NCBI GenBank assembly: GCA_934096405.1
Contig: CAKOLW010000002.1
Coordinates: 16,754 to 80,753, forward strand
Direction of reading: 5' to 3'
From: an uncultured Bacilli bacterium
GTDB taxonomy: Bacteria; Bacillota_I; Bacilli_A; RF39; UBA660
Length of the DNA stretch: 64,000 nt
The notes under the pieces are model-generated. The model saw only the letters and a list, made by a program, of their open reading frames with translations, was not told where the DNA came from and made no database searches. Shown here piece by piece: positions 1,250-52,377 of this stretch; the first letter of the stretch is position 1, and each line of letters opens with the position of its first letter. A program made the translations under genes and the position numbers.

Positions 1250-2794
1250 TTAACAATTTGAGTTAACTTCATCCACTATATATGGATTAGTTGGTGTCCC
1301 TGTTCCAGTTACCAATACACAAGAAGCTAATGAAATTGCGGGACGCGCAACATAATATGCATAATCGGAACGACCATCACTTAAATTTCCTGAATTAGCA
1401 GTACCGCCAGCTAGCCATATTGTAGCCCCAGAGCCAGTCCATCTACGTGGAGATAGTAACCAAATCCAACTATTACCGGTTATTGAATTTCCTTCACTAT
1501 TTAAATAATACCATGCATAAGGACTAGTTAATTTTGTGCCAGTTTTTCCACCAGCAAAGACAAGTTCATCTGCAGTTGCTAATGCTATTGGATACTTAAG
1601 TTTACCATTTCCTCCACCTGTTGTGCTTGCACTAAATTTATCAGCAATTGCTTGCACACTTTCAAATAAACCACCACTTGGATTTGTTCCACATTTGTAT
1701 GATGGGGTTTTATTATCAACTAGTCTTGTGTAACTGCCATAATATACTACTTTACTAGTTACATATTCATACTTTGAGTCATAACTTCTATCATTACAAT
1801 ATATTGCAGTTTTACTTATATATTTATCATAATTTGTTAGTAATTTATTCTCGTACCATGTATCTATATATTTTTTAATTGTACTATCATTTTCATTTGT
1901 TCTATTATTATCTATAGACCCACTTGTTCCATACATATAGCCTTCATATACTAAATCATTATATTCAGTATTAAATTTTGTACTTCCTAGGTAACCTTTT
2001 TCTGTATCTGTACTTGTTCCAGAATATAGAAGTCTTACGCCTCCATCTTCATTAGTACGAATTATTCTCCAGTAAAATCCTCCAAAGTATACCCAGTTAT
2101 TTGTTGTATTTCCCGAATAATAATATACATCACTTCCATCTTCTGTTTTATTTGTTTTATATATTGTTCCTGTTGTTGTTTCTGTATTTGTTACACTAAA
2201 ATCTGTTCTTTCACTTACAGTTGGATTATCTCTTAGTATTGCACTTGAAACCAAAACTCCTGGTTCGTCTGTTCCTTCTTCAATGAATATCTTACCTGAT
2301 ACTTCTTTTTCCATATCAGCACTTTGGTCTACATCATCATCACTTATGTACTTCAATTCTAATGTATAATTATGTTTTGTATTAGAGGCTATTGCAACAC
2401 TATATTTAATAATTATATCTTCTAGTGTAGTTGACTTTGGTATATCTTCATAGTCAATCATACTATATCCACCATCTGTACTTGTTATTTTATATACTAA
2501 ATAGCCTTTAGTTACAAATGTGTTTATTAAATCTTTAAATACTAAATTATATTTATATTCATAGTTTGTTTTATTCTCTACACTAAATGTTTTAGTTATA
2601 CTCCATCCTGGTTCTATATTTGTTCCTTCTATATCATCCCCGTTGTCAAAAACTATTTTCAAATCATTTGTATCAACAGTTATTTTCTTTTTATCTCCTC
2701 TTACTATGGAACTAAAGTAAGCATAGGTTAAACCTAATAACAAAAATAATACTAAGCAAATTCCATATATTAAAAACTTCTTTTCTTTTGTCAC
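1250..2794 (-). CDS. Secreted protein, family member 1. It has a SipW-type signal peptide, a TasA/camelysin-like N-domain and a C-terminal lectin-like (DUF6273/DUF1566-like) domain.
   Basis: The ORF track gives 1250..2833 from a TTG that lies inside the promoter. The likely start is GTG 2794, 9 nt after AGGAGA. The N-terminus KKFLIYGICLVLFLLLGLTYAYFS matches the (T)(F/Y)AYFS SipW-class signal. Other motifs: IEPGWSITKTFSVEN; YYYSGNTTNNWVYFGGFYWRIIRTNEDG; YPIALATADELVFAGG; WIWLLSPRRW; YYVARPAISL. The protein ends in C-x21-C-COOH. Confidence 0.85.
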   Translation of the reverse strand: MTKEKKFLIYGICLVLFLLLGLTYAYFSSIVRGDKKKITVDTNDLKIVFDNGDDIEGTNIEPGWSITKTFSVENKTNYEYKYNLVFKDLINTFVTKGYLVYKITSTDGGYSMIDYEDIPKSTTLEDIIIKYSVAIASNTKHNYTLELKYISDDDVDQSADMEKEVSGKIFIEEGTDEPGVLVSSAILRDNPTVSERTDFSVTNTETTTGTIYKTNKTEDGSDVYYYSGNTTNNWVYFGGFYWRIIRTNEDGGVRLLYSGTSTDTEKGYLGSTKFNTEYNDLVYEGYMYGTSGSIDNNRTNENDSTIKKYIDTWYENKLLTNYDKYISKTAIYCNDRSYDSKYEYVTSKVVYYGSYTRLVDNKTPSYKCGTNPSGGLFESVQAIADKFSASTTGGGNGKLKYPIALATADELVFAGGKTGTKLTSPYAWYYLNSEGNSITGNSWIWLLSPRRWTGSGATIWLAGGTANSGNLSDGRSDYAYYVARPAISLASCVLVTGTGTPTNPYIVDEVNSNC

Positions 2795-2823
2795 CTTTAC
2801 AACTCTCCTATCTTTACATTTTA

Positions 2824-2852
2824 ATTTTATCAAAAAAAGTAGTTTGTTACAA
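2824..2852 (-). promoter_or_regulatory. Sigma-A-type promoter TTGTAA-N17-TAAAAT with an extended -10 TG, for family member 1
   Basis: The minus strand reads ..TTGTAAcaaactactttttttGaTAAAATtaaa. The same module occurs at 39771-39799 and a related one at 24973-25001. Confidence 0.55.
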
Positions 2853-6782: not shown

Positions 6783-8582
6783 TTAGTTATTATTTTCTGT
6801 GTTATTATTTTCGTTGTTTTCTTCTCCAGGTGTTAGTGTTCCTTCTACTACTTCTGGAGTTTTAGCAACCGTAATTGTTAATGTTACTCCTTCAGTTACT
6901 ACACTTTTAGCTGGTCTTGATTGATTAATTATTTTTCCATTAGGTAATAGTGAATTTTCTTCTTCTCTTATTTCTAATGTTAATTTATATTTATTAGCAA
7001 ATTCTTGTACCATTTCTAAAGTATAACTTCCATTTGTAAAATCCGGGTATAAGATTTCTAATTCAGGAACATATAATGTAATGCTTGAACCATATTTTAT
7101 AGTTTCATCAACTCCTGGGCTAGTTCTTAAAACAGTTTCTTCTTTACCTTTATATTTTTCTTCATTTGTTACTTTTTCTTTTTCTATTACAACATTACAA
7201 TTGTATTTAGTTTCAAGAATTGTTTTTACTTCAATATAATTTTTACCACTATAGTCTGGCATTGTAAATGTAGCATCACCACTTGATATGTATATACAAA
7301 CTGTTTTGCCTTCTTTTACAATTGTACCTTTTTCTGGATCAGTTTTGACAACATAACCCTCTTTTATTTCATCATTAGGTATGTATTTATAGTCTCCATC
7401 AGAGCATTTTACATTGAATCCTTTTTTAGTCAATGTGTTACTTGCATCAACTTTGCTTAAGTTAGAAACATCAGGTACTTCTAATGTTTTACCTTTACTT
7501 AATTTAGGAAGTAAGAATATTACAACTGTTATTAGAACAATTAATCCTGCAAATACACACCCTAAGATAAGTAAAATATTTTTTTGTTTTTTTTCTTCAT
7601 TATCTTCTTTTTCAGTAACGATTTCTTTTGGCGTTTCTTTTTTAGTTTCTTGTTTTTTTATTTCTTTAACCACTGTGTCTAATTTTTTAGTATTTTCAAC
7701 ATCATATTCAGGATATGGGTAAACATATTTTTTTTCATTAGCTCTTGTTTCATCTAAGCAAGTTATTATGTCTTGATGCATTTCTCTTGCATCTTTATAC
7801 CTATTAGCTGGATTCTTAGCTGTTGCTTTTATTATTATATTTTCTACACTTTGTGGTAATTCTGGCAATATTTTTCTTATGCTTGGTATTGGTTCTTTTA
7901 ATTGTTTTAAAGCTATTTCTACAGCATTTTCCCCTTTAAAAGGCACACTACCTGTTAATAGTTCATACATTAGTATACCCATAGAATAAATATCACTTTT
8001 TATGGTACAGCCTTTACCTGCTGCTTGTTCTGGAGGTAAATAATGAACACTACCCATTACTGAATTAGTTTGTGTTAATTGAGTACTATTTAGTGCCATT
8101 GCAATACCAAAGTCAGTTATTTTTATTAATCCATTTTCTAGTATCATTATATTTTGAGGTTTTATGTCTCTATGTATAATGTATGAATCATGAGCATGAG
8201 CCATACCATCTGTTATTTGACTCATTATATCTATAACTTCTGTTATCGTTAGACTTCCTCTTTTTTTAAGTAATTGTTTTAACGTTTTTCCTTCTACATA
8301 TTCCATTACTATGTAGTATTCTCCATCATCTTCTCCAACATCATACATTTCGACTATGTTAGGATGATTTAGACTAGAGGCACTTAAAGCTTCTCTTTGG
8401 AATCTTCTTACGAATTTTTCATCATTTCTTAAGTCACCACGAAGTACTTTAACTGCTACATTTCTATCTAATATAGTATCATAAGCTAAATAAACATTAG
8501 CCATACCGCCTTCACCAATAGTTCTAATTATAGAATATCTGTTATTTATCTTTGTTCCTTTATTTATCATACACACCACCAT
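6783..8582 (-). CDS. pknB: PASTA-domain Ser/Thr protein kinase PknB/PrkC
   Basis: Hanks kinase motifs GEGGMANVY, HRDIKPQNIM, DFG and SVHYLPPEQ, followed by a TM segment and three PASTA-like repeats. The real start may be ATG 8570, which overlaps the stp stop. Confidence 0.93.
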   Translation of the reverse strand: MVVCMINKGTKINNRYSIIRTIGEGGMANVYLAYDTILDRNVAVKVLRGDLRNDEKFVRRFQREALSASSLNHPNIVEMYDVGEDDGEYYIVMEYVEGKTLKQLLKKRGSLTITEVIDIMSQITDGMAHAHDSYIIHRDIKPQNIMILENGLIKITDFGIAMALNSTQLTQTNSVMGSVHYLPPEQAAGKGCTIKSDIYSMGILMYELLTGSVPFKGENAVEIALKQLKEPIPSIRKILPELPQSVENIIIKATAKNPANRYKDAREMHQDIITCLDETRANEKKYVYPYPEYDVENTKKLDTVVKEIKKQETKKETPKEIVTEKEDNEEKKQKNILLILGCVFAGLIVLITVVIFLLPKLSKGKTLEVPDVSNLSKVDASNTLTKKGFNVKCSDGDYKYIPNDEIKEGYVVKTDPEKGTIVKEGKTVCIYISSGDATFTMPDYSGKNYIEVKTILETKYNCNVVIEKEKVTNEEKYKGKEETVLRTSPGVDETIKYGSSITLYVPELEILYPDFTNGSYTLEMVQEFANKYKLTLEIREEENSLLPNGKIINQSRPAKSVVTEGVTLTITVAKTPEVVEGTLTPGEENNENNNTENNN

Positions 8583-9309
8583 TTATTAATAAAACTGCTA
8601 TGGAAATATTATCATTTCCACCCCTTAAATTACTCTTTAATATTAGTTTGCCTACTTTTTCTTCTATATCTAAGTCTTCATCATTTAATACTTTTTCTAT
8701 TTGTTCTTTTGTAACCATATTAGTTAACCCATCACTACACAAAAATATTCCGTCAACAGAATTTTCAACATCAAAAATGTCTACTTCTGCTTTTGGACTA
8801 GCACCTAGTGCTCGCATTAATACATTTTTTTGTGGATGATTAGCTGCTTCTTCTGGTCTTATTTCTCCGGTGTCCACCAAAAAGTTAGCATATGTGTGAT
8901 CTTTAGTAACTTTATATAGTTTACCATTTTTAAATACAAACCCACTAGAATCTCCAATGTTAGCAAAAATTAAATATTCCTTAGTTAGTAATGCACATAC
9001 AAGTGTTGTTCCTAATCCTGTAGCATCAACGTGTTCTTCTGCATATTTAATAATATTTGTGTTTACTTCTTCAATAATTTCTTTTAACCAAGTTATTGCA
9101 TCTATTTTAGTTCCTAATGTACTCATGCTTTGGAATCTTGAGCCAATATGTGTCACAGCTAAAGAACTAGCAACTTCTCCAGCACGGTGACCACCCATGC
9201 CATCAGCAACCATTAGCAAATAGTCCCCACTTAAGTTTTTAACTATAGTAACACTATCTTCGTTATGATTTCTAACTTTTCCAGCATCCGTTTGATAATG
9301 TGCTAACAT
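8560..9309 (-). CDS. stp: PP2C-family Ser/Thr phosphatase Stp/PrpC
   Basis: Motifs NEDS, ADGMGGHRAGEVAS, LCSDGL and GGNDNIS. It is translationally coupled to pknB. Confidence 0.92.
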   Translation of the reverse strand: MLAHYQTDAGKVRNHNEDSVTIVKNLSGDYLLMVADGMGGHRAGEVASSLAVTHIGSRFQSMSTLGTKIDAITWLKEIIEEVNTNIIKYAEEHVDATGLGTTLVCALLTKEYLIFANIGDSSGFVFKNGKLYKVTKDHTYANFLVDTGEIRPEEAANHPQKNVLMRALGASPKAEVDIFDVENSVDGIFLCSDGLTNMVTKEQIEKVLNDEDLDIEEKVGKLILKSNLRGGNDNISIAVLLINGGVYDK

Positions 9310-9649: not shown

Positions 9650-9781
9650 CTACTTTCCACATTTTATTGGATTTACAAAGCCTTCAAATAAACCCATTGC
9701 GAATGATAAGGCAGCTCCAATAATGGACCATATTCCCCAAGAGGCTCCTCCATAAATTTCTATTAATTCATCTTTTTTCAT
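9650..9781 (-). CDS. Double-glycine-leader peptide 2 (class II bacteriocin-like precursor, 43 aa)
   Basis: Not in the ORF track. An RBS gaaaGGAGaaaaattt precedes the ATG. Sequence: MKKDELIEIYGG|ASWGIWSIIGAALSFAMGLFEGFVNPIKCGK. The start overlaps the exporter stop by 14 nt. Confidence 0.8.
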   Translation of the reverse strand: MKKDELIEIYGGASWGIWSIIGAALSFAMGLFEGFVNPIKCGK

Positions 9782-11819
9782 AAATTTTTCTCCTTTCTAT
9801 ATCATAATAACAATTAAATATATCTTGTATTTCCTTTTTATGTGATACATATATAATTGTTTTTTCTTTAAAATATTCACATAGATTTTTTATAATATCT
9901 TTTTCTATTTCTGTGTCAACCTCACTAAGTGCTTCATCAATAATTATGTAATTACTATTTTTTAGCAAAGCTCTCGCTAGTATAATTCTTTGTTTTTCAC
10001 CACCACTAATATTAAAACCATTTTCTTCAATTAATATATTTTCTTTGTCTTTAAAATGAGATAAATTACAAATATCAATTATTTTATTATATTTACTCTC
10101 ATCAATATTTCTATTTAAAATTATATTATTTTTAAAAGTATCTGAAAATATTTTTTCATTTTGTCCAATATAAGTAAACGAATTATTAATTATATTGTCT
10201 TCAATTTTACTGTAATCAGCGCCATTAATTACAACTTTACCATTATAATCTTTTAAATACTTTAACAAAATTTTTATAAGTGTTGATTTGCCACTTCCAC
10301 TTTTTCCTTTAAGTAAAAATTTGTCTCCACTTTTAATTTTAAAATTTATATTATTTAATATTAATTTATCTGAATAACTATACTGTAATTTTTTTATAAT
10401 AATATCACCACTAATTGTCTCATTAGTTTGTTTTGATTCTTTTGAAGAAAATATTGTATTTATTTTTTCTAGGTTTTTTAAATTATAATTCAATTCAATA
10501 TCTTTATTTAATATGGATTTAACCGTTTCTAGAAAATAACTATTTATCATATATAATAAAATTAAATCACTAATTTTAATTACTTTGTTTGTCACAAATA
10601 TTATTCCTAGAGTCATGAGTAAAAGTAATCCTATATCATTTATAAAGTCTTTAAAAAATTGTTGACTATTAAGACTATAATTCAAACTCCTATTAGAATC
10701 ACAATATGTTTTATGTGTTTTATTTATTTCTAATAATTTAAGACTTTTAATATTAAGATTTTTAATAGTTTCTACTCCTTCGATTATTTCATATAATTTA
10801 TTATTATAAAAACCCTTTTCTTCTTGTATTATTCTAATCTTTCTGTCAAATAAATTTCTATATAACTTGATAAAGAAATAATATAAAAATACTATTATCA
10901 GGGTGATTAAAGCTAATTTTAAATTAATAGTTATCATTATTATAAATGATATTATAATTATTAATATATTTATAGACATATTTAATATTATATCTGACAA
11001 AATATCTCTTAAATTATCTAAATCATTTAATCTACTTATAATTTCTCCAGAGGTTTTATTTTTGTAGTAAGCATAAGGAAGGTTAAATAGTTTACTTAGT
11101 ACTTCATTATTTATAAATAATTCAATATTATAATTTGTATTAATAATTAATTTATTTCTAAAATAATTAAATATATTTTTAATAATTATAAATAGACTAA
11201 ATAAGATAAGCAAACTTATAATATACTTTCTATTTACATTAGGTTTCTCTAAAATTATTTTATAATAATATGTACTAATTATACTGAATAAAAAAGTTAT
11301 TAAAGAGGTAATAAAAAGTAATAATAGATTCTTTTTATCTTTTAAAATTTTAACTAGTATTTCTTTAAAGATTTTGTTACTATTAGATTCTTTAGGTAAC
11401 TCTTTTATTTTTTCGAAGAATAAAAGTGTTCCTAAGTACTTTTTTTGAAAATCACTTATTTTAGTTTTTATAAAACCAATACATGGATCCATATATAGAA
11501 TTGTATTTCTATTTGTATCTATTTTATATATAACTACAAAGTGATATGCATTACCATTTTTTACATGTGCGATTAAAGGAAACTTATTTTTATATTTATG
11601 TATATTTTCGAGAGCAACTTTTTGTCCATAAGCATTAAATCCTATTTCTTTAGCACCTTTAATTATGTCATATGCATTCGTGCCATGTTTAGTGGTATTA
11701 ATTATTTCTTTAATATTTTCCATACTTATATTACCACCATAATATTTAATTATTGAAGATAAACTAGCTGCAGCGCAATCATTTTTATCTTCATTAAGCA
11801 CCATTAATTTTTTATTCAT
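9768..11819 (-). CDS. Bacteriocin/peptide ABC exporter with an N-terminal C39 peptidase domain (LagD/ComA/SunT family)
   Basis: C39 Cys in KNDCAAASLSSII and His in AYHFVVIYK. Six TM segments follow, then Walker A GKSGSGKST, the signature ISGGEKQR and Walker B IIIDEA. Confidence 0.9.
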   Translation of the reverse strand: MNKKLMVLNEDKNDCAAASLSSIIKYYGGNISMENIKEIINTTKHGTNAYDIIKGAKEIGFNAYGQKVALENIHKYKNKFPLIAHVKNGNAYHFVVIYKIDTNRNTILYMDPCIGFIKTKISDFQKKYLGTLLFFEKIKELPKESNSNKIFKEILVKILKDKKNLLLLFITSLITFLFSIISTYYYKIILEKPNVNRKYIISLLILFSLFIIIKNIFNYFRNKLIINTNYNIELFINNEVLSKLFNLPYAYYKNKTSGEIISRLNDLDNLRDILSDIILNMSINILIIIISFIIMITINLKLALITLIIVFLYYFFIKLYRNLFDRKIRIIQEEKGFYNNKLYEIIEGVETIKNLNIKSLKLLEINKTHKTYCDSNRSLNYSLNSQQFFKDFINDIGLLLLMTLGIIFVTNKVIKISDLILLYMINSYFLETVKSILNKDIELNYNLKNLEKINTIFSSKESKQTNETISGDIIIKKLQYSYSDKLILNNINFKIKSGDKFLLKGKSGSGKSTLIKILLKYLKDYNGKVVINGADYSKIEDNIINNSFTYIGQNEKIFSDTFKNNIILNRNIDESKYNKIIDICNLSHFKDKENILIEENGFNISGGEKQRIILARALLKNSNYIIIDEALSEVDTEIEKDIIKNLCEYFKEKTIIYVSHKKEIQDIFNCYYDIERRKIYEKR

Positions 11820-12100: not shown

Positions 12101-12177
<77 letters not shown>

Positions 12178-30188: not shown

Positions 30189-30265
30189 GGGCTTGTAGCT
30201 CAGTTGGTTAGAGCGTGCGTCTGATAAGCGCAAGGTCGATGGTTCAAGTCCATCCAGGCCCACCA
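30189..30265 (+). tRNA. tRNA-Ile (anticodon GAT)
   Basis: GGGCTTGTAGCTCAGTTGGTTAGAGC.., anticodon loop CTGATAA, T-loop GGTTCAAGTCC, CCA encoded. Confidence 0.92.
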
Positions 30266-30272
30266 TTTTAAT

Positions 30273-30348
30273 GGCCGGTTGGTGAAATGGTTAACACACA
30301 CGCCTTTCACGCGTGCATTCACGGGTTCAAATCCCGTACCGGTCACCA
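30273..30348 (+). tRNA. tRNA-Glu (anticodon TTC)
   Basis: GGCCGGTTGGTGAAATGG.., anticodon stem CACGC/GCGTG with loop CTTTCAC, T-loop GGTTCAAATCC, CCA encoded. Confidence 0.92.
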
Positions 30349-30412: not shown

Positions 30413-31075
30413 TTATGCATTTGTATCATTTTCTGTATCCCAAGTTACTGTGTCATCTGTAACCATTTTTGCTACTTCTTTACCATCTATTTTGTAAACA
30501 CCTATTACTCTCCACATTATACCACTATAGTAAAGATAGTTATCTGGATTGTTACAATTTGTATCATTAGCGCAGTAAACGCATTCCATCTTTTCTACTT
30601 TTTGATTTTCATCAGTACACTTTAAATCAGTCTTAACTTTTCCTACTAAATCAGTATCAGTAGTTGAAGCTTGTTCACTACCCCATATTGCTATGTATGC
30701 ATCATTTGAATACTTTATTAATATTTCTTGATTATTTAAACTTTGATTATTCGTAGGATCAATAACACATCCTTTGTTAGTTTTTTCTGTTTCAGCATCT
30801 CCACACTTTCCTGAACCATTAGCAATTTCAGAATTAACATACCCATTTTCTACTAAATTATATACAAATATTTTTTCTCCACTAGGTATATTTTTATCTT
30901 TAGCATATAACTCAGCTGCAACTAATATTATGTCTTTTTTACTTTCTAATAATCTTTCATTGGATCTTTTTCTTATATTTATTATACTAGGTATAGATAT
31001 AGCTAGTATTATTCCTATTATTGCAATTACTACTAATATTTCAGTAATAGTAAAACCTTTCTTATTATTAATCAT
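30413..31075 (-). CDS. Type IV pilin/pseudopilin-like protein (prepilin N-terminal methylation motif), orphan
   Basis: MINNKKGFTITEILVVIAIIGIILAISIPS has the G|FTxxE motif. The C-terminal segment NPDNYLYYSGIMWRVIGVYKIDGKEV resembles the YYYSG..W..WRIIR..DG motif of the secreted family. Confidence 0.8.
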   Translation of the reverse strand: MINNKKGFTITEILVVIAIIGIILAISIPSIINIRKRSNERLLESKKDIILVAAELYAKDKNIPSGEKIFVYNLVENGYVNSEIANGSGKCGDAETEKTNKGCVIDPTNNQSLNNQEILIKYSNDAYIAIWGSEQASTTDTDLVGKVKTDLKCTDENQKVEKMECVYCANDTNCNNPDNYLYYSGIMWRVIGVYKIDGKEVAKMVTDDTVTWDTENDTNA

Positions 31076-35150: not shown

Positions 35151-36746
35151 TTAGCATGTTGAACCTTGTTCATCCACTACATAAGGATTTTCTGGAGTTC
35201 CTGCTCCTGTCACTTTTACACATTTATCTAAAGATATTACTGGTCTTACTTTACCATTTTGTGCACTAATTGTATAGTTATATAAACCACCTAGTCTATT
35301 AGAACCATCTACATACCATACATTTGAAGTTTTTCCATTCCAAAATGAAGGTGACATTACCCACCACCAACTAGTGCCTGTTATACTTTTTCCTTCACTA
35401 TTTGTAGAATAGTATAAATATGGTCCATCTGGATAATTCATAAATACACCACCGGCATATGCTAATTCATCTGCGCTTATTAAGGCTATTGGATAAGTTA
35501 ATTTGCCATTACCATTATTGTTACCACTTACATTAAATTTATCTGCAATTGATTGTGTACTTTCAAATAATCCACCACTTGTATTACCTCCACATTTATA
35601 TGTAGGGCTTTTAGATTTATAAAGTCTTTCTCTAGCTCCGTAAAAGAATGAAGTATTTGAATTGTTTGACCACGTTCCTTCAGTAATACTTCTATCATTA
35701 CAATATATTGCATCTTTACTTATATATTTATCATAACTAGTCAATAAATGTGTTGAATACCAATTATCTATATATTCTTTTATAGTACTGCTGTTGGTAT
35801 TTGAACGATTATCTTCATGACTAGTATTACCTCCATACATATATCCAGCATATCTTGATTCACTATTAACACTATTAAAAGCAGAATTTCCTATATAACC
35901 AGTTGTTGTACTAGGGTCATTTCCAGCATACAATAATCTTATACTTCCATCTTCATTTATTCTTACTATTCTCCAATATATATCATCTCCAGATTTCCAT
36001 AAATTTTCTTCTGATGTATCATCAGTTGAATATTTACCAAACTTAACCCAGTTACTATTTGTATTACCAGAATAATAGTATACATTACTATTATCTTCTG
36101 TTTTATTTGTTTTATATATTGTTCCTGTTGTACTTTCTATATTTATTGTACTAAAGTTAGTTCTTTCACTAATTGTTGAATTATCTTTTAATATTGCTTC
36201 AGTTAATGTACGAGTTGTGTAGTCACTACTTGGTTCAATATAAATATTACCACTTAATGTTTTTTCCATATCATCTGATTGATCAATATAGTTATCATTA
36301 ATATATTTCATTTCAATTGTGTAATCATGAATTTCATTTGGTAATAAATTTATACTATATTTTATTGTAGAATCTCTTTTTATATTTGCCTTAGGTATAT
36401 CTAAGTAATCTGTCATATTGTATCCATTGTTACTACTTGTTATTTTATATACTAAGTATCCTTTAGTTACAAATGTATTTATTAAATTTTTAAAAACTAA
36501 ATTATATTGATAATTATAGTTTGTTTTGTTTTCTACACTAAATGTTTTAGTTACACTCCACCCTGGTTCTATATCTATTCCATCTATTTTTTCTCCATTA
36601 TTAAATATTATTTTTAATTCATTAGTATTAACAGTAATTTTTTTCTTTTCTCCTTCTATTCTAGTAGCAAAATAAGCATATGTTAATCCAATTAATATAA
36701 ATAATATTAAACATATTCCATATATTAAATATTTCTTTTCTTTCAT
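35151..36746 (-). CDS. Secreted protein, family member 2 (SipW-type signal, TasA-like N-domain, lectin-like C-domain)
   Basis: KKYLIYGICLILFILIGLTYAYFATRIEGEKK; IEPGWSVTKTFSVEN; YYYSGNTNSNWVKFG..IYWRIVRINEDG; YPIALISADELAYAGG; WWWVMSPSFW; KVRPVISL. The protein ends in C-x21-C-COOH. The start is ATG 36746 or TTG 36764. Confidence 0.85.
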   Translation of the reverse strand: MKEKKYLIYGICLILFILIGLTYAYFATRIEGEKKKITVNTNELKIIFNNGEKIDGIDIEPGWSVTKTFSVENKTNYNYQYNLVFKNLINTFVTKGYLVYKITSSNNGYNMTDYLDIPKANIKRDSTIKYSINLLPNEIHDYTIEMKYINDNYIDQSDDMEKTLSGNIYIEPSSDYTTRTLTEAILKDNSTISERTNFSTINIESTTGTIYKTNKTEDNSNVYYYSGNTNSNWVKFGKYSTDDTSEENLWKSGDDIYWRIVRINEDGSIRLLYAGNDPSTTTGYIGNSAFNSVNSESRYAGYMYGGNTSHEDNRSNTNSSTIKEYIDNWYSTHLLTSYDKYISKDAIYCNDRSITEGTWSNNSNTSFFYGARERLYKSKSPTYKCGGNTSGGLFESTQSIADKFNVSGNNNGNGKLTYPIALISADELAYAGGVFMNYPDGPYLYYSTNSEGKSITGTSWWWVMSPSFWNGKTSNVWYVDGSNRLGGLYNYTISAQNGKVRPVISLDKCVKVTGAGTPENPYVVDEQGSTC

Positions 36747-36847
36747 TTTTCTTTGTATAATCAATCTTAAAATATTTTGATATGTAATCGATTTATTATA
36801 CTTCTCCTTTCTTTCAAAATTTCTTGACTATAATAGTTTGCCTTCTA

Positions 36848-39586
36848 TCAACAAGTACTAGCACTTTCATCTATTACATATGGATTATCAGCAGTTCCTT
36901 TTCCTGTTACTTTGACACAAGAGTTTAGAGAAATGACAGGACGAACAGCATCCGCGCCGCTCACGCGTCCGCCGCCCAAGCCCGCATCGCCAGAATCCCA
37001 ATAACACTCGCTCGCATAGCTACCAAACCAGTCGAAAGGCGACAAGGACCACCAATAATTTGATACTTTAGTTCCAGAACTATTGCTTATAAACCATGCA
37101 TATGGTGTACTCATACTTGCATACCATGCCGTTCCTCCGGCAAAAGCCATTTCGTCAGCAGTCATTAATGCTACAGGGTAGTCTAACCTTGCACTTGTGT
37201 TTTCCACACTAAATGCATCTCTTATATCACTGCAATTATATGTTGGTGTTTTATCTGTTATTAATCTTTTATGTGACGCAAAATCAAATCCTGTACTTGA
37301 TGTTGTATATGAGCCTTCTGTTTCTTCACTTCTATCATTACAATATATGGCACTTGTACTTAAGTATTTTGTATAATTAGTTAAATTGTTTTGATACCAT
37401 GTATCTATATATGTTTTTATTGTACTATCATATGTATTATTTCTTATTGTATCGAGGGAAGTATCTTCTCCATATTTATAGCCTACATATTTTGGACTAT
37501 TATAGTTTGTATTAAATGCACTTGTTCCTATATTTCCACTTGTTGTATCATGACTTGTTCCTACATAAAGTAGTCTTATACTTCCATCATGATTTGTTCT
37601 TATTATTCTCCAGTAGAATCCCCCAAATAATACCCAGTTATTTGTTGTATTGCCAGCATAATAGTATACTTCTTGTGGTGTACTAGTTATTCCTGCTATA
37701 CTTTCTGTTGAAGTAAACAATGTTCCTGTCGTGGTTGAATTAAAAGGACTACTAAAAGATGTTCTAGATGAAATTGTTGGATTATCTTGTAATATTATTT
37801 CTGCTAAAGTTGATGATGCTTTTTTTCTTAAAATAACTGTACATTCTTGATATTCTATTGGATTTGATATTTTTACTCCAGTACTTGTTATTGTACCAAC
37901 TGCAGTTCCTGTACAACTAACATTTGAATATTCTAATTTATAACCTTCATTTGGCGAAATAATAAATGATGTCTCTTGATTTTTATTTACTACAGCGTAA
38001 TCAGTTTTAGCTTTACCATTTTGTACTTTTAATACTATTATACTTTCATCTTTAGTGTTATCTGAAGAATTATAGTTTACTTCATCAATTTCATAAGGAT
38101 TATTTGCTGTTGCATCTCCTGATTTAATTCTAGCATTTGATGATAGTGATATAACTGGACGAATTACACGTTCTCCATTAACATAAGAATTTGTCATATA
38201 ACCTGGATTACTACTTCCACGTACAGTAAAATTAAGTGCATATGATGTACTCCAATAGTATGGAGTTAACGTCCACCAGAAATTACTTCCTACAATAGAA
38301 TTTCCTTCACTATTTGTATAATACCATGCATAAGGACTAGTTAAATCTTTTCCATTTAATCCACCTGCGAATACTATTTCATCTGCTGTCATTAATGCAA
38401 TTGGGTAGTCTAGATCTCCATTTCCTCCACCACTTATACTTGCACTAAATTTGTCATCATTTGACTGAGTGCTTTCAAGTAATCCATTGCTTGTATTTGC
38501 TCCACATTTATATGATGGACTAATAGTCTTGACAAGTGTGTAATAATCTCCAAAATGAAATCCACTTGTTAGAGAATATGCTTCACTACTTATACTTCTA
38601 TCACTACAATATATTGCTTCTTTACTTATGAATTTATCATAATTAGTTAGCAGATTGTTTTGATACCAATTATCTATGACTTGTTTTATTGTACTTGAAT
38701 TAGAATTTAATCTATTATTTGATAACGAACCGCTTGTTCCATACATATAGCCAACATACATTGGATCATTTGCAGTTGAATTAAATGCAGTATTACCAAT
38801 ATAACCTTCTGTTGTATTATGATTAGTACCTGCATATAAAAGTCTTACACTTCCATCTTCATTAGTACGTATTATTCTCCAAAAATAGCCTCCAAATTTA
38901 ATCCAATTATTTGTTGTATTTCCTGAATAATAATATATATCACTTCTATCTTCTGTTTTATTTGTTTTATATATTGTTCCTGTTGTATCATTGTTATTAG
39001 TTGTATTAAAGCTTGTTCTTTCACTTACTGTTGGATTATCTCTTAAAATTGCTTGTACTAAAGATAACTCTTTTGTTCCTTCTTTTATCATAAATGTTCC
39101 AGATAATTTTTTACCCATATCAGCTGATTGATCTTCTTCTGTATCTTTGTAAATCAATGATATTGTATAGTCATGACTATCTTTAGGATTAATTGTTATA
39201 TAGTGTGCTAAGGTTACATCTGTTTTTTCATTAGTTTTTGGCAAATCTATATATTCTTCCATATTGAATCCATTTGTAGATGTTATCTTATATTGTAAGT
39301 ATCCTTCAGTTACAAATGTATTTAGTAAATCTTTTACATATATATCATAAGTTTCTGTTTCTTTAGATGTACTTTTAACTTTAAAATTAATGCTTGTATT
39401 CCATCCAGGTTCAATAGATACTGCTGGTATTGTTTTTTCTCCTTCGTATTTTATATATACACCAGTAGTTTTTACAGCAAATTCTTTATCATTTCCGAAA
39501 ATTCTTGGCTTAAAATATGCTAAAGTTACTCCTATTGTAATTATTAATATACTTACTACTAATATTGTTAAATACTTTTTCCTCAT
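36848..39586 (-). CDS. Secreted protein, family member 3 (912 aa), with one TasA-like N-domain followed by two lectin-like domains
   Basis: LTILVVSILIITIGVTLAYFKPRIFG; IEPGWNTSINFKV. Domain 1: YYYSGNTTNNWIKFGGYFWRIIRTNEDG..FWWTLTPYYW..VIRPVISL. Domain 2: YYYAGNTTNNWVLFGGFYWRIIRTNHDG..YWWSLSPFDW..AVRPVISL. The protein ends in C-x21-C-COOH. Confidence 0.88.
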   Translation of the reverse strand: MRKKYLTILVVSILIITIGVTLAYFKPRIFGNDKEFAVKTTGVYIKYEGEKTIPAVSIEPGWNTSINFKVKSTSKETETYDIYVKDLLNTFVTEGYLQYKITSTNGFNMEEYIDLPKTNEKTDVTLAHYITINPKDSHDYTISLIYKDTEEDQSADMGKKLSGTFMIKEGTKELSLVQAILRDNPTVSERTSFNTTNNNDTTGTIYKTNKTEDRSDIYYYSGNTTNNWIKFGGYFWRIIRTNEDGSVRLLYAGTNHNTTEGYIGNTAFNSTANDPMYVGYMYGTSGSLSNNRLNSNSSTIKQVIDNWYQNNLLTNYDKFISKEAIYCSDRSISSEAYSLTSGFHFGDYYTLVKTISPSYKCGANTSNGLLESTQSNDDKFSASISGGGNGDLDYPIALMTADEIVFAGGLNGKDLTSPYAWYYTNSEGNSIVGSNFWWTLTPYYWSTSYALNFTVRGSSNPGYMTNSYVNGERVIRPVISLSSNARIKSGDATANNPYEIDEVNYNSSDNTKDESIIVLKVQNGKAKTDYAVVNKNQETSFIISPNEGYKLEYSNVSCTGTAVGTITSTGVKISNPIEYQECTVILRKKASSTLAEIILQDNPTISSRTSFSSPFNSTTTGTLFTSTESIAGITSTPQEVYYYAGNTTNNWVLFGGFYWRIIRTNHDGSIRLLYVGTSHDTTSGNIGTSAFNTNYNSPKYVGYKYGEDTSLDTIRNNTYDSTIKTYIDTWYQNNLTNYTKYLSTSAIYCNDRSEETEGSYTTSSTGFDFASHKRLITDKTPTYNCSDIRDAFSVENTSARLDYPVALMTADEMAFAGGTAWYASMSTPYAWFISNSSGTKVSNYWWSLSPFDWFGSYASECYWDSGDAGLGGGRVSGADAVRPVISLNSCVKVTGKGTADNPYVIDESASTC

Positions 39587-51844: not shown

Positions 51845-51876
51845 TCGAAAAGTTCGAGTTATTATCAATTTGGTGC
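51845..51876. repeat. Right copy of the 32-bp direct repeat, overlapping the last 6 nt of tRNA-Thr
   Basis: See 49297-49328. Confidence 0.6.
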
Positions 51877-51946
51877 CGAAAGCAGGATTTGAACCCGCGA
51901 CCTACTGATTACGATTCAGTTGCTCTACCAACTGCGCTATTCCGGC
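51871..51946 (-). tRNA. tRNA-Thr (anticodon CGT)
   Basis: The reverse complement is GCCGGAATAGCGCAGTTGGTAGAGCAACTGAATCGTAATCAGTAGGTCGCGGGTTCAAATCCTGCTTTCGGCACCA. The acceptor is GCCGGAA/TTTCGGC. Confidence 0.88.
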
Positions 51947-52022: not shown

Positions 52023-52377
52023 TGGTGGAGCTGACGAGTATCGAGCTCGTGTCCAAAATATCTACTATACAAGCGTGTACAAGTTTAGTTGGTTTATTAT
52101 TTCAAAAAGTATAATGGATTGCCAACGTTCCTATACTTTTCTAAGTTTAGTAATAATTCTTTATTTAACCTAAACAATTAAATAATATAGTCTACTTTTA
52201 TGAGTCCTAGATCTTTTCTCGTAGACAAAGAAAAGTTAGAACCACCATACATCCTAATAACTAGGCAAAAGCAGGTGCAAAATTATAATCTTTTCCGATT
52301 ATTTTATTTTTGGATTTATAGTATCCCTACTACTTGCGCTCATACGTACAACTATCTTGTCGAAACATAACAGCCCC
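52023..52377 (-). ncRNA. ssrA: tmRNA (ssrA)
   Basis: The 5' end GGGGCTGTTATGTTTCGACAAGATAG parallels the B. subtilis tmRNA 5' end. The 3' end is GGACACGAGCTCGATACTCGTCAGCTCCACCA. The acceptor has the G3:U pair. The tag ORF at 52296-52261 reads GGA AAA GAT TAT AAT TTT GCA CCT GCT TTT GCC TAG, giving (A)GKDYNFAPAFA. Confidence 0.85.

Follow-up and report, generated by a model that had tools for sequence, protein, structure and literature searches.

The window analysed here, the whole 64,000-nt stretch of contig CAKOLW010000002.1 from an uncultured Bacilli bacterium, contains a gene for a 912-aa secreted protein that carries, near its 3' end, a candidate variable region (VR) of a diversity-generating retroelement (DGR). 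The gene, its modules and its paralogues in the window are as follows.

36848..39586, minus strand: the 912-aa target gene, defined by its open reading frame (ORF) and by alignment, with an N-terminal hydrophobic signal or anchor; in it, a non-diversified paralogue and a DGR-type module are fused in tandem.
36851..37816, minus strand: the DGR-type C-terminal module, 322 aa, a DUF6273-like or C-type-lectin-like predicted ligand-binding domain with the VR near its C-terminus.
36935..37050, minus strand: the predicted DGR variable region, 116 nt, GGTCCTTGTCGCCT...CGTCCTGTC, encoding (W)SLSP-FDWFGSYASECYWDSGDAGLGGGRVSGADA-VRPV and collinear with the 116-nt template repeat (TR) and VR units of two related loci, L003 and L004.
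36927..36934, minus strand: ATTTCTCT, the 3' continuation of the TR/VR homology, at the spot where an element resembling the initiation of mutagenic homing (IMH) sequence would sit; its function is putative.
37904..39586, minus strand: the N-terminal half of the 912-aa protein, by alignment and composition a complete copy of the non-diversified paralogue, whose VR-equivalent is AT-rich.
35151..36764, minus strand: a 537-aa non-diversified paralogue directly downstream of the target gene, with no TR between the two.
1250..2833, minus strand: a 527-aa non-diversified paralogue, identified by alignment, that adjoins ftsZ.

Alignment divides the 912-aa protein into two parts of different origin. 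Residues 1 to about 560 belong to the same paralogue type as the 537-aa and 527-aa proteins. After a linker, the second module (residues ~585-912) belongs to a different subfamily and is the sole carrier of the unusual patch described below; more than 100 DGR-target homologues match it at 68-81% identity, and 28 codons separate the end of the VR from the stop codon. The 83-nt gap between the target gene and the 537-aa paralogue holds no TR-like sequence. In the protein collection, the exact 912-aa protein is present on four contigs, and a fifth contig encodes a variant with K896T alone (P0121 vs P0122).

What sets the second module apart is a GC-rich, adenine-poor patch at 36935-37051, which on the minus strand corresponds to codons 846-884 of the 912-aa ORF and matches, letter for letter, the quotation in the preliminary description of this DNA. 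Over its 117 nt the coding strand has 11 A, 26 C, 46 G and 34 T. The G+C content of the patch is 72/117 (61.5%), in a window of 26.2% G+C (0.262); 24 of the 39 codons end in G or C, and 13 are NNC codons (GGC five times, AGC three times, and GAC, CGC, TCC, TTC and GTC once each). Our recount agrees with every figure given earlier (11 A in 117 nt, about 60% G+C, 24 G/C-ending codons, 13 NNC). Adenine makes up 9.4% of the coding strand in the patch vs 42.0% in the remainder of the gene, third-position A is 2.6% vs 47.6% elsewhere in the gene, and third-position G+C is 61.5% vs 11.4%. Among all 117-nt stretches of the 64 kb, the highest G+C (0.624) is found at the patch; apart from it, G+C exceeds 0.5 only at the tRNA-Ile/tRNA-Glu pair (30189-30348). 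The number of minus-strand adenines per 117-nt segment averages 48.6 (standard deviation 7.2); the patch, with 11, is the unique minimum, and every segment with 15 or fewer falls inside 36913-37063. The edges of the patch are sharp, as G+C runs from 0.33 (36820-36939) through 0.59 (36940-37059) to about 0.40 (37000-37119). The third-position and sliding G+C figures bear out the earlier statement that the patch lies in a gene preferring A/T-ending codons and is flanked by AT-rich DNA on both sides. Likewise, the VR-equivalent segments of the N-terminal half of the 912-aa protein, of the 537-aa ORF and of the 527-aa ORF are ordinary AT-rich DNA, and the same remark about the other domain copies holds for all three. 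Two simple accounts of the patch were rejected: chance composition, which the figures above far exceed, and a tRNA or other RNA gene, because Rfam and ARAGORN were empty there.

Homologues of the last module vary in just this segment. A search with the module returned 2,623 homologous proteins. Most are about 508 aa long, and most come from assemblies of human-gut metagenomes. Save for 30 residues between WWSLSP and (A)VRP[AV]ISL, the C-terminal tails of these proteins hardly differ, so that the earlier placement of the patch between YWWSLSP and AVRPVISL, where variable regions sit, coincides with the segment in which the tails vary. Across 96 distinct VRs we observed a common fixed scaffold, xxWxxxxAxVWxWxSxxxxLxxxxVxxxxA, with W3, A8, V10, W11, W13, S15, L20, V25 and A30 invariant. 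The variable columns hold nearly only N, S, T, Y, H, D, A, G, C, F, I, L, V, P and R; in the same 96 VRs, K, E, Q, M and W account for 1.1% of residues at these columns vs a background of 14.3%. This near-absence indicates that the repertoire consists almost entirely of the residues reachable from AAC by changing both adenines. Variation can also be confined to the VR: 22 protein pairs have no substitution in the ~478 residues outside it and 8-17 substitutions within its 30 residues, and the 90% cluster of P0064 has 12 distinct VRs among 15 members. Other clusters carry a single VR despite substitutions elsewhere, namely those of P0048 (seven members, though the locus L008 has an adjoining TR), P0041 (32 members) and P0081 (40 members on more than 100 contigs, with K, E and an insertion in the VR). 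Judged from these alignments, actively diversifying and frozen alleles coexist within the family.

The components expected of a DGR are present in relatives. At L003, the locus of homologue P0020 on a 92-kb gut contig, we find on one strand, in order, the target gene, a TR, a MutS_I-like ORF, bAvd and an RVT_1 reverse transcriptase (RT). The TR is an AAC-rich, 116-nt repeat of the VR in a non-coding module about 215 nt after the target stop codon. Over the 116 nt, all 18 mismatches between TR and VR fall at TR adenines, and at L004 the same is true of 17 out of 17; we take these repeats to be textbook TR/VR pairs. The TR-homologous stretch spans GGTCNTTGTCNCCT to CGTCCNGCC, which are the exact bounds of the window patch (36935-37050). 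At L003 and L004, both TR and VR run on as ATTTCTCT after CGTCCCGCC, the TR with a 1-nt insertion, and the same octamer follows the window VR. No conserved inverted repeat that could form a cis hairpin was found downstream of the VR in the window, L002, L003 or L004. The L003 RT (371 aa, RVT_1 E = 7e-16) has the motifs YMDD and PIGNYSSQ, and a search for its homologues gave 3,405 matches, none of them traceable to the genome of the window. The Avd is matched by bAvd (E = 8e-7) and, below threshold, by the NCBIfam model DivGenRetAVD (E = 1.5e-7). Between TR and avd, L003 12171-12572 encodes a 133-aa protein with MutS domain I (MutS_I, E = 6e-7, above the Pfam cut-off); the domain match makes it the counterpart of the MSL accessory proteins in Wu et al. 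2018.

The target gene and its conserved TR module of ~450-560 nt together span about 2.1 kb, and this unit is found in several unrelated chromosomal settings (L003 10001-12100, L004 10001-12140, L006 1-1490, L007 and L008). An MSL-Avd-RT cassette follows the unit in L003 alone; there is no RT within 10 kb downstream in L004 or within 6.7 kb in L006. One metagenome-assembled genome (CAKOIS01) has two target and TR modules, on two contigs. Because target and TR modules can lie more than 6-10 kb from any RT, trans action seems to be normal in this lineage, and the pattern among relatives suggests that one RT may serve several private templates in trans. Two scans of 2.9 million viral contigs (IMG/VR) with TR patterns gave no match.

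We consider it very probable that the patch is a genuine DGR variable region in a secreted lectin-like protein, now orphaned. The DGR origin proposed in the preliminary description is supported through the relatives, by their adenine-only TR/VR mismatches, their MSL-Avd-RT genes, their VR-confined variation and the bounds that they share with the window. Retrohoming would have written the window VR in particular, by the following route. The family TR would encode a fixed scaffold in adenine-avoiding codons (TGG, TTG, TCG, GCG, GTG, CGT and the like) with AAC and AAT codons interspersed. An error-prone RT would copy the TR RNA, misincorporating opposite adenines, and the cDNA would then replace the VR. 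A VR made in this way inherits the adenine-free scaffold while most AAC codons become NNC, which gives a sharp, G+C-rich and adenine-poor island of TR length in a 26% G+C genome. On the secreted DUF6273-like (C-type-lectin-like) domain, the VR presumably forms a ligand-binding surface. The last rewriting of the window VR would predate the divergence of the sampled strains; the target gene has been fused behind a non-diversified paralogue, and the VR is fixed in all strains sampled.

The VRs nearest to that of the window form a clade of their own. The closest relatives of the module are P0001-P0004 (78-81% identical), together with P0010, P0011, P0015 and P0018. Nine clade VRs (the window, L002, L005, L010-L013, L015 and L016) have in common non-adenine bases peculiar to the clade, among them GAG ahead of the second TGG, and GCT GTT CGN CCT at the VR end. 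In the eight clade VRs that were counted, G+C is 0.54-0.62 and 46 of the 56 variable sites fall at codon positions 1 and 2. Synonymous scatter at TCN and CGN would be explained if the template has TCA and CGA, and the L003 template does contain TCA. We found no intact TR within 10 kb of the clade loci; L002, L005, L010, L011, L012, L015 and L016 are without a TR. Three of these loci (L002, L010 and L011) are syntenic, with flanks 94-97% identical, yet have quite different VRs and no local TR, which indicates that clade VRs have been rewritten without one. On this evidence, trans-acting templates exist, or once existed, in the window's clade.

One clade-type template was recovered in a decayed state. 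At L013 1815-2010, 140 nt after the P0015 target, lies a TR with deletions of 1, 3, 27 and 3 nt, whose retained segments differ from the window VR almost solely at the TR's own adenines. The 3' continuation of this TR is still in frame as a target-gene tail (AVRPVISINSCIKVTGTGT...SCN*), and the tail is closer to the window-type tail than to that of the neighbouring P0015 gene. The L013 template looks like one born from the duplicated 3' end of a target gene. Decay is also visible in a VR, as that of L016, a sister strain with flanks 95-98% identical to the window, has at least five non-adenine-type changes.

Comparison between strains bears on whether the window VR is active. The contig L001 (ENA ERZ27287193) differs from the window at three positions in 22,739 nt, none of them in the VR, and L014 (a Hadza sample, ERZ4560700) at 10 positions in 19,310 nt, again with none in the VR; the L014 single-nucleotide polymorphisms nearest to it are at 36900 and 37652. 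Hypervariability limited to the VR, seen at the family level, was not seen for the window's own gene across the three assemblies. The preliminary description had named beforehand an invariant patch among the outcomes that would speak against its hypothesis, and the identity of the patch in three assemblies goes part of the way in that direction. Related clusters behave similarly: the cluster of P0003 (four members) has 2-6 substitutions outside the VR, that of P0005 (three members) 1-6, and that of P0011 (two members) three, and none of these clusters has a substitution within the VR. Every inspected cluster of the window's clade (P0003, P0005, P0011 and the window's own) is static. The ENA sample that contains the window's twin contig has, on a different contig, a second target that carries the clade scaffold and no TR (L012, P0011). 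At the target locus itself, L016 (9246-10730) has one 494-aa gene and is without the 537-aa paralogue. This difference in gene content from the window makes the target locus structurally polymorphic, and the polymorphism probably arose via recombination between paralogous modules.

Searches of the source genome for a TR or RT covered the 64-kb window. No second copy of the patch was found there by word-7 blastn or with an adenine-tolerant IUPAC pattern derived from the VR (G to R, C to M, T to W), which at up to three mismatches found only the VR itself. Homologues of the L003 RT, Avd and MSL gave nothing below E = 0.3 in the window by tblastn, and neither an RT-like YxDD motif nor homology to the TR flanks was found in it. 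The blastn, pattern, tblastn and motif scans thus all agree with the earlier finding that the window holds no TR, Avd or RT; none of the three lies within 27 kb on either side. In wider collections, a hardened adenine-tolerant VR pattern gave no match on GTDB representatives; it may have missed the template, since adenine changes alone would not turn an AAC/TGG template into the TGT and GGA of the VR. With GCGAAYTTGAAYAAYAAYAAYGTG, a pattern built on TRs only, three TRs were recovered on genome contigs, all of the 508-aa subfamily and none of them cognate; this pattern could miss a window-clade TR because it assumed AAC where clade codon 24 may be AGC. A clade-specific TR/VR pattern run on JGI metagenomes found the L005 VR only.

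The predicted fold of the module points weakly to a domain of the kind that DGRs diversify. An AlphaFold model of the 322-aa module is confident, with a predicted local distance difference test (pLDDT) score of 80 and a predicted template modelling (pTM) score of 0.86; a model of a 130-aa truncation has a pLDDT of 46. Against the PDB, the top match was the Legionella Lcl C-terminal domain, of DUF1566 type (E = 1.1), followed by several C-type-lectin-like domains, none significant. Foldseek matches among predicted viral structures (BFVD) include several gut-phage DUF6273 proteins (E 1e-4 to 4e-3, template modelling (TM) scores 0.34-0.40). Published work describes DUF6273 domains as DGR targets with a C-type-lectin-like character (PMC10743442). 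In relatives, DUF6273 is matched below its Pfam gathering threshold of 23.5 bits, in P0052 at 20.8 bits (E = 3.7e-4) and in P0020 at 16.2 bits, over residues 421-486, which are the VR region. Neither Pfam nor NCBIfam gave a significant match for the window proteins of the family, and a profile search of PDB sequences was likewise without a meaningful match. Of the lectin fold proposed earlier, the C-type-lectin-like part is weakly upheld, and the matches to viral structures and to Pfam in relatives favour, again weakly, a DUF6273-like over a DUF1566-type domain.

Several observations weigh against our interpretation of the patch as an orphaned DGR variable region in a lectin-like protein. Pfam DUF6273 (PF19789) is absent from the window protein and from its C-terminal module at E <= 0.05-0.1, and the evidence for a C-type-lectin-like fold is weak; the lectin-like reading of the predicted model is no more than plausible. 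With the patterns used, no TR cognate to the window VR came out of the GTDB representatives, JGI metagenomes or IMG/VR. Each of the five intact TRs recovered has 16-19 non-adenine mismatches to the window VR, vs none in cognate pairs, and by this measure none of them could have written the patch. The window VR itself departs from the clade scaffold at 3-4 places, all GC to AT (TGG to TGT, NNC to GGA, GCC to GTC); these changes are not of the adenine type, and suggest drift after the last homing or a variant TR. Finally, the invariance of the VR is drawn from a small set, only three assemblies at the DNA level and five contigs in all, from at least two samples of different studies.

For an orphaned VR, a frozen relic is more likely than a rarely rewritten remote target. 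We give somewhat better than even chances to a history in which the DGR that wrote the VR was lost or inactivated in this lineage, with the patch since evolving as ordinary DNA, and the VR is presumably inactive at present. Such a history is consistent with a VR that is invariant across assemblies and in all inspected clade clusters, with a gene remodelled by fusion, and with scaffold departures that are all GC to AT, as expected of drift in an AT-rich genome. Decay elsewhere in the family points the same way, in the four deletions of the L013 TR, the non-adenine-type changes of the L016 VR and the K, E and insertion fixed in the 40 members of the P0081 cluster. Against it, the evidence covers the 64-kb window of the source genome and few strains, and the 3-4 scaffold departures are no more than are found in other TR-less VRs. 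The P0048 cluster, moreover, is static although L008 has a TR, which means that the lack of a local TR is not decisive.

The other account of an orphaned VR is that it remains a live remote target, rewritten in trans by an intact DGR (TR, Avd, RT and perhaps MSL) elsewhere in the chromosome, with the strains sharing a favoured allele. Non-phage DGRs are known to have targets at distances of more than 100 kb from their RT (PMC5758913), and the relatives' target and TR modules at more than 6-10 kb from any RT fit the same pattern. So do the different VRs without a local TR at the sister loci L002, L010 and L011, and the second TR-less target with the same clade scaffold in the ENA sample of the window's twin contig. 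The third positions of the VR show no amelioration toward A, and the ORF is intact. Live rewriting is harder to reconcile with a VR that is identical in three assemblies differing elsewhere, and with clade clusters (P0003, P0005, P0011 and the window's own) that are static vs the 12 VRs among 15 members of P0064. The GC-to-AT departures of the window VR, the decaying VR of the sister strain L016 and the absence of an intact clade-type TR from every scanned collection speak against it as well. We regard continued rewriting as possible, on balance doubtful; the earlier proposal of a remote target is upheld as to DGR origin, and its present-day activity is not supported, given the identical VR in the three assemblies.

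A broader arrangement, which we think unlikely, would be a distributed DGR network in low-G+C gut Bacilli. One MSL-Avd-RT locus would serve, in trans, dispersed units of a target and a 450-nt TR as well as TR-less targets, and a target would pass from a diversifying to a frozen state, or back, as its private TR is gained, is lost or decays. If this were so, the window VR would be a live or recently parked node and not a mere relic.

That a 117-nt piece of a G+C-rich donor recombined into the gene without any retroelement, as the preliminary description offered in the alternative, would fit the sharp bounds and foreign composition of the island and a recombinationally active locus (at L016 the VR-bearing module is another allele, 79% identical, between flanks 95-98% identical), but is very improbable, since the same island with the same bounds recurs in all DGR-type homologues examined, those bounds coincide with the relatives' TR, the depletion is specific to adenine (T = 29%) and not a general G+C shift, allele differences cluster at codon positions 1-2 of NNC and NNT codons, and cognate TRs account for every mismatch in L003 and L004; a TR-encoded scaffold with A-to-N mutagenesis accounts for the composition, and foreign gene conversion is not needed.

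The surroundings of the target gene and its paralogues were also inspected. In the related species L002 and L010, a DGR-type target stands directly after genes for T2SSF and a prepilin peptidase, and in the window a 220-aa protein that bears a prepilin methylation motif at its N-terminus (N_methyl, E = 5e-7) is encoded at 30413-31075 on the minus strand, about 4 kb from the paralogue cluster. There is a hint here that the DGR-type target may be linked to a type IV pilus-like or competence apparatus. The ORFs beside the window's 527-aa paralogue, unlike the pilus genes at its L002 counterpart, are a PASTA Ser/Thr kinase and an overlapping PP2C phosphatase (6783-9309, minus strand; Pfam scan), and a bacteriocin-type ABC exporter with a C39 peptidase is encoded at 9768-11819 on the same strand. 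Both the kinase and phosphatase pair and the C39 exporter are of an ordinary housekeeping or accessory kind for a chromosome of low-G+C Bacillota. The window further contains a tmRNA gene (52023-52377, minus strand) and four tRNA genes (Arg-TCT, Ile-GAT, Glu-TTC and Thr-CGT), at 12101-12177 and 30189-30348 on the plus strand and at 51871-51946 on the minus strand.

The locus shows how a DGR variable region may be recognised from raw sequence. A TR-length, adenine-depleted island stands out in an AT-rich genome even with the retroelement far off. Standard DGR finders begin from the RT and miss remote targets (Roux et al., PMC8144416), and such RT-first finders would not report the window locus. 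A family with both active and frozen alleles could also lend itself to the question of when hypermutation is shut off, and why.

The prototype DGR is that of Bordetella phage BPP-1, with Mtd, TR, Avd and bRT. The family described here resembles it in the adenine-specific flow from TR to VR, in the AAC-rich TR of the relatives and in the position of the VR at the C-terminal end of the target. Unlike BPP-1, it has no recognised IMH or hairpin, is not phage-borne, and can have its TR modules many kb from the RT. In predicted fold, the module is nearest to the DUF6273 targets of gut phages (tentaclins and Mtd-like proteins; PMC10743442), with which it also shares the human-gut setting. It differs from those targets in several ways: the window protein falls below the Pfam threshold and reaches TM scores of only 0.34-0.40, its domain is longer (~320 aa, with a long, insertion-rich N-terminal part), and it belongs to a chromosomal element of the host.

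Among cellular DGRs, those containing MSL constitute 'Architecture D' of Wu et al. 2018, which includes the Legionella DGR (PMC5758913). The L003 order of target, TR, MutS_I-like ORF, Avd and RT is like this architecture, though the cassette belongs to the relative and not to the window; unlike it, other relatives carry a target and TR module without the cassette. In Treponema denticola, TvpA with its seven scattered targets exemplifies a chromosomal DGR with remote targets (PMC5758913). As in Treponema, a secreted lectin-like protein carries the VR close to its C-terminus, the target is far from the RT and TR, several paralogous targets occur per genome, and the element is cellular and not phage-borne (no match in the 2.9 million viral contigs). 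Unlike in Treponema, the window VR is static in the sampled strains and is known without its cognate TR and RT, and the accessory set of the relatives is MSL and Avd, not HRDC. For the window itself, this is a known mechanism in a new member of a target family, with no sign of current activity. The mechanism is that of an ordinary chromosomal MSL-Avd DGR variable region with non-adjacent targets, closest in its logic to Treponema and Legionella and in its fold to the DUF6273 proteins of phages.

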